Of a stretch of 64,000 nucleotides of DNA, positions 28,801 to 30,186 are shown piece after piece. The notes below the pieces were generated by a model, which was not told the DNA's origin, ran no database searches, and saw nothing but the letters and a program-made list of their open reading frames with translations. Numbering within the stretch: the stretch's first letter is position 1; every line of letters starts with the position of its first letter. The DNA comes from an uncultured Gaiellales bacterium (GTDB lineage Bacteria; Actinomycetota; Thermoleophilia; RBG-16-64-13): positions 26,014-90,013 of the forward strand of contig CAYNPL010000007.1 in NCBI GenBank assembly GCA_964399135.1, written 5' to 3'. The translations under genes were made by a program, and so were the position numbers.

Positions 28801-30186
28801 CTGCTCGCCCTCTACCCGGCGGCGGACCACCCCGACTTCAAACTGGACGTCCGCTCGGTGCTGGGCTGCCAGAGCCGCATCGGCGTGTGCCAGCTCTGCT
28901 ATGGTCGCTCATTGGCCGCCAACGACCTGGTGGCCATCGGCGAAGCGGTGGGTCACATCGCCGCCCAGTCCATCGGCGAGCCGGGTACTCAGCTCACCAT
29001 GCGGACCTTCCACACTGGCGGCGTGGCCGGCGCCGACATCACCCACGGTCTGCCCCGGGTGGTGGAGTTGTTCGAGGCCCGCAAACCCAAGGGGCAGGCA
29101 AAGATCACCCAGTTCGCCGGGATCGTCCACATCGAGGAGTCCGACAAGGCCAAGAAGGTGGTCATCCTCGACGACACCGGCGAGGAGCTGCACAGCTACG
29201 CCATCAGCCGGCGGGCCGACCTCATGGTGCGTGAAGGCCAGCGAGTGGAGGCGGGCGACCAGCTCTACAAGGGTTCGCTCAACCCGCACGAGCTGCTGAA
29301 GTACCGGGGAGCGGTGGAGACCGCCCGCTACATCGTGAGCGAGGTCCAAGACGTCTACCACAAGCAAGGTGTGCAGATCGACGACAAGCACGTGGAGCTC
29401 ATCGTCCGCCAGATGACCAAGAAGGTCCTGGTGGAGACGCCCGGCGACACCAGCTTCCTGCCTGGCCGCATGGTCGACCGCCTCATCTTCGACGAGGAGA
29501 ACGAGCGGGTGGTGGAAGCAGGCGGCGAGCCGGCCACCTGCGAGGACATCATCCTGGGCATCACCAAGGCCTCACTGGCCACGGAGAGTTTCCTTTCGGC
29601 GGCCTCCTTCCAGGAGACCACCAAGGTCCTCACCGACGCGGCCTTGGAGGGCAAGGTGGACGAATTGCGCGGCCTCAAGGAGAACGTCATCATCGGCAAG
29701 CTGATCCCGGCCGCCACCGGTCTGCGCGCGTACCGCAACATCGAGCTGGTCACCACCGGCATGCCGGCCGAGATGGACATCTTCGGCGATGCGCTGGCGG
29801 GACGGCGTGACTCCGGTTACGCCCTCACTCCCGAGCAGCAGTGGGCTCAGCTCACCGGCTCCGCGCATGACGTGGAAGCCTACAACATGCTGGTGGACGA
29901 CCTCGACCTGCCCACCTACGTCCACTCGGTCCTCAGCCGGGCGGGGATCGAGCGGGTCAGCGACCTCCTCGGGTACACCACCAAGGAGCTCATGGCCATT
30001 CCCGGTCTCGGTCAGAAGAGCCTGGAGGAAGTGCGGAACCGCCTGGCCGAGAAGGGTTGGAGCCTGGCCGGCGACGAGCTGGAGGAGGCCGGCGACGAAC
30101 TCCTGGGAGTGGGCGAGCCTGCCGGCCCGGAAACGGGACTGCTGGGCGGCGACGGTTTCGACGGAGACGGATTCGAAGACGAGTAA
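25870..30186 (+). CDS. rpoC: DNA-directed RNA polymerase beta' subunit, with C-terminal RpoA-alphaCTD-like helix-hairpin-helix domain and acidic tail
   Basis: 1438 aa. (M)[27 protein letters not shown]...; Zn motif [23 protein letters not shown]; NADFDGDQM catalytic motif. GTG start 9 nt after the rpoB stop. Confidence 0.95.

Follow-up and report, generated by a model that had tools for sequence, protein, structure and literature searches.

The window analyzed here, meaning the whole stretch of 64,000 nucleotides, carries on its forward strand the gene for the beta' subunit of RNA polymerase, rpoC, and a Pfam profile search of the product finds all five Rpb1 domains (1-5) together with PF03118 (RNA_pol_A_CTD). 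The gene, the parts of its C-terminal extension and the polymerase features around it are the following.

25660..25857, + strand: acidic tail of RpoB, residues 1196-1261 (66 aa), with 24 D/E and 2 K/R
25870..30186, + strand: rpoC (beta'), 1438 aa, GTG start, stop codon at 30184..30186 (open reading frame list, translation and Pfam)
29752..29874, + strand: linker, beta' residues 1295-1335 (about 41 aa), beginning after the last conserved core motif
29824..29859, + strand: conserved 12-residue linker motif, beta' residues 1319-1330, kept across homologues
29875..30072, + strand: alpha-CTD-like (HhH)2 domain, beta' residues 1336-1401 (Pfam, BLASTP, AlphaFold2, Foldseek and dN/dS)
29911..29934, + strand: signature P-T-Y-V-H-S-V-L in helix 1, beta' residues 1348-1355 (40-sequence alignment)
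30004..30021, + strand: second HhH hairpin G-L-G-Q-K-S, beta' residues 1379-1384 (40-sequence alignment)
30073..30183, + strand: acidic C-terminal tail, beta' residues 1402-1438 (37 aa), with 14 D/E and 0 K/R
30251..30276, + strand: terminator-like GC hairpin with a T run, 65 nt past the rpoC stop (from a consensus scan only)
49211..49393, + strand: canonical alpha-CTD of RpoA (gene 48440..49396), keeping R265, N268, C269, G296, K298 and S299

A preliminary description of this DNA had proposed that beta' ends in an alpha-CTD-like HhH domain followed by an acidic tail, and this is borne out by Pfam, BLASTP, AlphaFold2 (AF2) and Foldseek; of the two peptides it quoted, one is located in beta' and the other in RpoA (48440..49396). 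It had extended the similarity over about 140 residues, which holds for the domain of about 60 residues (1336-1401, equivalent to residues of about 256-316 in E. coli alpha) but not for the linker (1295-1335) or the acidic tail (1402-1438). The linker is mostly disordered by AF2 prediction (pLDDT ~49-63), with a short helix predicted at the 12-residue motif (helix 22-29 of the model of the 139-aa C-terminal piece), and the tail, which bears semi-conserved E-x-LLG and (A)LLGGD motifs, is likewise predicted to be disordered.

In the full-length protein, PF03118 matches beta' residues 1336-1394 with an E value of 7.8e-12 and 45.2 bits, rising to 49.5 bits when the 139-aa piece alone is searched, where the gathering score of the family is 23.8 bits; Pfam also gives weak matches to HHH_5 and HHH. 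The resemblance to the RpoA C-terminal domain of the same genome that had been claimed at the outset is confirmed by BLASTP, in which the RpoA CTD and the beta' piece align without gaps at 25/61 identities (41%, E 8e-15). When all PDB chain sequences are searched with the piece by phmmer, the significant matches are alpha subunits only (E down to 1.8e-9), no beta' chain is among the matches, and the NusA chains that rank next are marginal (E 0.18-0.4, 14-15 bits). The AF2 model of the piece, based on an alignment of 26 sequences, is confident in piece residues 41-100 (pLDDT ~80-85), the linker and tail being of low confidence and largely unstructured, and shows no confident contact between tail and domain within the extension. 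Foldseek superimposes the confident part on solved alpha-CTDs with an rmsd of 0.5-0.9 Å over 59-66 columns and a target TM of 0.8-0.93 (1LB2_E, 0.8 Å over 60 columns; 1Z3E_B, 0.9 Å over 66; 8Y5T, 0.5 Å over 62), and the HhH/alpha-CTD similarity that had been put forward for checking thus stands on both profile and structure search. Judged by sequence profile and predicted model together, the end of beta' is a genuine alpha-CTD-fold HhH domain, tethered by a flexible linker. The top Foldseek match, 9a4w, an RpoA-RpoC model, proved irrelevant, as the paper concerns the RpoA-RpoC pair of B. subtilis (PDB 6WVK) and makes no mention of an alpha-CTD-like domain on beta'.

Such a fusion might be an artefact of mis-assembly, of a chimeric rpoA-rpoC join, of read-through into a small separate gene or of faulty gene calling, and many of the database entries concerned are indeed short ORFs of 90-240 aa, some of them named 'alpha subunit'. 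These short entries, however, either still show the core motif of beta' ahead of the domain or stem from contig ends and frameshifted long-read assemblies, in which the beta' core is still translated upstream of the domain. In addition, 39 intact loci, each from an independent assembly, run in one uninterrupted open frame from the catalytic NADFDGD through the domain to the acidic tail and encode proteins of 1432-1619 aa. A join with the rpoA of the same genome also fits poorly with an identity of only 41% between the domain and that gene's CTD, and Met1340, present in fewer than 70% of the sequences, is not a conserved internal start. The comparative data refute both an assembly artefact and a separate small gene starting at Met1340, and we give an artefactual origin of any kind a practically negligible probability.

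A scan of one genome per GTDB species (185,579 species), using two peptide patterns from the beta' domain, confirmed beta'-type loci in at least 55 species-level genomes, a lower bound that depends on those two sequence patterns, and all of them are Thermoleophilia-type MAGs labelled Actinomycetota, Actinomycetes, Thermoleophilia or Gaiellales, with RBG_16_64_13 among them. The same scan returned four unrelated matches, two RpoA genes and two chance matches. The carriers form two groups by core identity to the RpoC of the window (87-92% versus 69-77%), and the lowest pairwise core identity among them is 67%. Solirubrobacterales-type beta' fragments, at about 70% core identity, end some 75 residues past the same core motif with an acidic tail and no alpha-CTD match. 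Since the carriers are all Thermoleophilia-type and the Solirubrobacterales beta' is without the domain, the alpha-CTD-like extension, on the sequences compared, defines a deep sub-clade of the Thermoleophilia and is neither phylum-wide nor class-wide, contrary to the possibility, raised in the preliminary description, that it is a common feature of the phylum. Word-indexed protein searches gave almost exclusively fragments, with scores that set the beta'-type family sharply apart from ordinary RpoA fragments, and yielded no carrier taxa beyond those already found. A representative search (50% clustering) is uninformative on distribution, its RpoC clusters being represented by extension-less proteins and its matches dominated by multi-repeat alpha-CTD-like proteins. 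Some C-terminal fragments of beta' (six of the matches, under JGI names) have been labelled 'DNA-directed RNA polymerase alpha subunit' by gene callers, a mislabelling that could mislead marker-gene counts.

The acidic tail has a wider range than the domain. In Solirubrobacterales the beta' tail is about 75 aa long, acidic, and has GLL, ELGL and GF motifs that resemble those of the window tail; six fragments of this type end in DDVGLLDQDEIAAELGLGDG...FAEELAELD, without the alpha-CTD domain. Because these sister lineages possess the tail without the domain, the acidic tail of beta' is, from the comparison of these sequences, older than the alpha-CTD-like domain. Mycobacterium-like beta' tails (YESYDYDFG...DDFDFG) were also among the search matches, and acidic or aromatic beta' tails seem to be general in the Actinomycetota. 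The long acidic tail that had been ascribed to RpoB is present as described (66 aa), and its motifs (...FADDAE) are conserved in 51 related loci of the same clade, such that both large subunits in the carrier clade end in acidic tails. Acidic tails occur on other transcription proteins, such as the C-terminal tail of the Firmicute delta subunit and sigma70 region 1.1; the beta' tail, in which 14 D/E stand without a single basic residue, is like these in composition but differs from them in following a folded HhH domain.

Selection on the parts of the extension was estimated by the Nei-Gojobori method from the 25 closest sequences, and the values are approximate because synonymous sites are near saturation. 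The dN/dS is 0.09 for the alpha-CTD-like domain and 0.07 for the last 19 residues of the beta' core, with 0.23 for the linker, which is more relaxed than core or domain, and 0.32 for the acidic tail. By these estimates, purifying selection on the domain is as strong as on the end of the core (0.09 versus 0.07). RNA polymerase subunits commonly bear lineage-specific additions (PMC11515920), and one could picture the domain as a neutral relic that was acquired in a single event and has since persisted as a functionless spacer ahead of the acidic tail. A spacer would not be expected to hold a core-like dN/dS while the flanking linker and tail drift, nor to keep about 20 surface and core positions invariant in 40/40 sequences whose cores are only 67-77% identical, and a neutral relic is disfavoured on these two grounds to the point of being very improbable.

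The window RpoA retains all of the canonical alpha-CTD residues. Since the genome keeps this normal RpoA in addition to the domain on beta', the RNA polymerase here carries three domains of alpha-CTD fold, two genuine alpha-CTDs and one on beta'. A recent duplication of the CTD of its own rpoA was considered as the source and rejected, the identity to the own RpoA (41%) being no higher than that to the alpha-CTDs of Bacillus and E. coli (38-41%), and for the same reason the origin of the beta' domain would be old or unsettled.

The two alpha-CTDs of RNA polymerase are its classic flexible arms, which read upstream promoter DNA and contact activators. Like the alpha-CTD in solved structures (PDB 1LB2, 3N97, 1Z3E), the beta' domain is a compact (HhH)2 fold of the same Pfam family on a flexible tether, with G296, K298, S299 and the hydrophobic core in common. 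They differ in position, as the alpha-CTD sits on alpha, tethered to the alpha-NTD dimer, and the beta' domain forms the beta' C-terminus and is followed by the acidic tail. They differ in copy number, the beta' domain being present once per enzyme besides the two genuine alpha-CTDs. They also differ in the '265 determinant', where R265/N268/C269/K271/K297 of alpha stand against an invariant Y/S/V/S/Q set in beta'. Among the DNA-recognition residues of the alpha-CTD, R265 is reportedly the key minor-groove residue.

The change of the face was followed in an alignment of 40 beta' domains with E. coli RpoA (numbering verified on NC_000913) and the window RpoA. The beta' signature P-T-Y-V-H-S-V-L occupies the position of x-V-R265-S-x-N268-C269-L in the alpha-CTD, with Y, H, S and T each in 40/40 sequences, P in 39/40 and V/I in 40/40, and R265 is accordingly Y, A267 H, N268 S and C269 V/I in every beta' domain. 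Fixed substitutions also occur at T263 (P), V264 (T), N294 (G) and K297 (Q, again in 40/40), and K271 is S, T or A across the 40 domains. In the hairpin, G296, K298 and S299 stay the same in 40/40 (39-40/40 with E302 included), and acidic residues at alpha positions 259 and 261 are kept as well. The DNA face of the alpha-CTD has thereby lost four of its five basic residues in beta', and the most invariant exposed positions of the beta' domain map to precisely the face that contacts DNA in alpha. Among 102 other alpha-CTD-like repeats from unrelated proteins in the representative search, R265 is present in 74 (73%) and N268 in 70 (69%), so the beta' signature is a specific departure rather than general drift. 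Net charge is uninformative on DNA versus protein binding, because the beta' domain (mean -2.6) is similar to the alpha-CTDs of E. coli (-1) and of the window itself (-2).

These data bear directly on the idea, put forward in the preliminary description, of a second alpha-CTD-like module for UP elements or activators. The fold and the tether that it assumed are there; the residues with which such a module would read DNA in the alpha-CTD manner are not, since R265, N268 and C269 are replaced in 40/40 and neither K271 nor K297 is retained. A third domain for UP-element or activator contact, working on A/T-rich upstream promoter DNA as the alpha-CTDs do, would draw on the fold and family shared with the alpha-CTD, on the invariance of the DNA-contacting hairpin residues G296, K298, S299 and E302, and on the acidic residues kept at positions 259 and 261. 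The full '265 determinant' of a UP-element reader (R265, N268, C269, G296, K298, S299) is, however, lacking in the beta' domain, in a genome whose own RpoA keeps every canonical residue, and R265 and N268 persist in about 70% of other alpha-CTD-like modules. We consider this reading unlikely, and classical A-tract or UP reading is correspondingly an improbable third in our ranking of what the domain might bind.

We tentatively favour, giving it not quite an even chance, the reading that the end of beta' is a tethered contact module of alpha-CTD fold with a changed binding face, rather than a third UP-element reader. This reading follows from R265, N268, C269, K271 and K297 being replaced while G296, K298 and S299 stay. 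We propose that the same face that serves as the UP-element surface in alpha would here contact a different and very conserved ligand inside the transcription complex, with the fixed P-T-Y-V-H-S-V in place of x-V-R-S-x-N-C, and K297 to Q, constituting the new specificity of the face. The linker of about 40 residues would let the domain reach much of the enzyme surface near the beta' C-terminus, and the acidic tail may act as an intramolecular competitor for the face of the domain or serve as an additional docking motif. Judged by its homology to Pol II, the beta' C-terminus presumably lies on the side where the Rpb1 CTD linker emerges, near the RNA exit. It also adjoins omega (PMC3985657).

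What the changed face might bind can be ranked. A protein partner, bound by HhH-HhH or factor docking of the NusA-AR2/alpha-CTD type, is placed first as a plausible if tentative choice, because the face has lost four of its five basic residues and bears a fixed aromatic and polar patch (Y, H, S, Q). The acidic repeats AR1 and AR2 of NusA are (HhH)2 modules with proteins (lambda N and the alpha-CTD) and not DNA as their ligands. They resemble the beta' domain as an alpha-CTD-related (HhH)2 fold at the C-terminus of a transcription protein from which the DNA-reading residues have been lost, and they are a precedent for protein docking by the HhH fold; of the DNA-contact basic residues, R265, K271 and K297 are gone from the beta' domain and K298 is kept, at a net charge (-2.6) similar to that of the alpha-CTD. 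The analogy has its weak points, as the sequence similarity to NusA is marginal (E 0.18-0.4, against 1e-9 for alpha-CTDs) and the beta' domain, unlike AR1/AR2, is not markedly more acidic than the alpha-CTD. Nor do the electrostatics of the domain (-2.6 versus -1 and -2) separate the options, and the retained G296, K298 and S299 could be backbone-phosphate contacts, favouring nucleic acid, or equally could be purely structural, serving the hairpin turn and a helix cap.

A sequence-independent contact with the DNA or RNA backbone is ranked second, since the G-x-K-S hairpin is still there and the invariance is extreme, as a possibility that we nevertheless regard as doubtful. In its explicit form, the domain would be a nucleic-acid clamp whose HhH hairpin binds the backbone phosphates of upstream DNA, or of nascent RNA close to the exit channel, with Tyr and His contributing stacking interactions and the acidic tail as a competing DNA mimic. 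Such a clamp would accord with the canonical HhH hairpin P-G-L-G-Q-K-S and the weak HHH_5/HHH matches, with an invariance across a deep clade that would suit a ligand which itself does not change, for instance nucleic acid, and with the presence of alpha-CTD-like modules elsewhere in proteins that handle DNA (SNF2 helicases, sigma region 4, Spo0A_C). It must contend with a DNA face stripped of four of its five basic residues and with a domain that is net acidic, and we rate it as rather unlikely. Returning to the contact module with a changed face, one speculative extension, which may be possible but which we would not expect to hold in full, is that the beta' domain is a built-in recruitment arm whose Y/H/S/Q/K/S face binds a conserved clade-specific partner, nascent RNA or upstream DNA, replacing a trans-acting general factor and altering the control of initiation or elongation throughout the clade. 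If true, it would be the first regulatory arm of the alpha-CTD type to be described on a large subunit.

Beta and beta' are reportedly known to carry lineage-specific insertions and extensions, in the form of the SI3, BEAN and HABAS/SBHM domains. These are, like the beta' domain, clade-restricted accretions onto a large RNA polymerase subunit, but they are mostly beta-rich and lie inside the core, whereas the beta' domain is terminal, tethered and all-helical; no Pfam match of the SBHM, HABAS or SI3 type was found in the extension. A 2024 survey of BEAN and HABAS domains masked N- and C-terminal extensions and leaves a beta' alpha-CTD extension unmentioned (PMC11515920). Our literature search found no description of a beta'-alpha-CTD fusion, and its recognition so far consists of automatic annotation only, as precomputed Pfam matches and NCBI or JGI names ('alpha C-terminal domain-containing protein'). 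What is new here is the site that a known regulatory fold occupies on the enzyme, together with the altered face that it presents, in a clade of uncultured organisms. Lineage-specific accretion on RNA polymerase is in itself common. The fold is shown to be redeployable within RNA polymerase itself, with a third domain hard-wired onto beta' in a lineage of order level or deeper, and this points to an interaction in the transcription machinery of abundant uncultured Actinomycetota of soil, sediment and digesters.

Several observations were made alongside. Within the beta' core, 7 of 39 relatives, scattered among the carriers, have an insertion of 77-96 aa that is apparently helical (e.g. KLAEPILHHADTLDPVLNRLNAERL...) at window residue ~623 (about nt 27736); the window beta' is without it. 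PF03118 modules elsewhere, as in seven of the representative matches, form tandem arrays of up to 11 copies and occur in fusions with SNF2/ResIII helicases, sigma-70 region 4 and Spo0A_C domains; R265 and N268 are kept in the majority of such repeats, and the multi-alpha-CTD proteins look like a large, apparently uncharacterised set. Downstream of rpoC, the terminator-like hairpin at 30251..30276 precedes rpsL (start 30343), and the intergenic stretch at about 30230..30250 recurs in several relatives as LLYFAAAA-type frameshifted translations. Elsewhere in the window, a single 694-aa ORF (58571..60655, + strand) combines AcpS (4'-phosphopantetheinyl transferase) with YjeF_N and Carb_kinase, the latter two being the NAD(P)H-hydrate epimerase and dehydratase domains. 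Two paralogous molybdopterin oxidoreductases with a pyrogallol-hydroxytransferase-like N-terminal domain (5124..7811, - strand; 8860..11388, + strand) adjoin thiolase and succinyl-CoA-synthetase-like genes (12226..14637), and four tRNA genes lie at 17709..18304.
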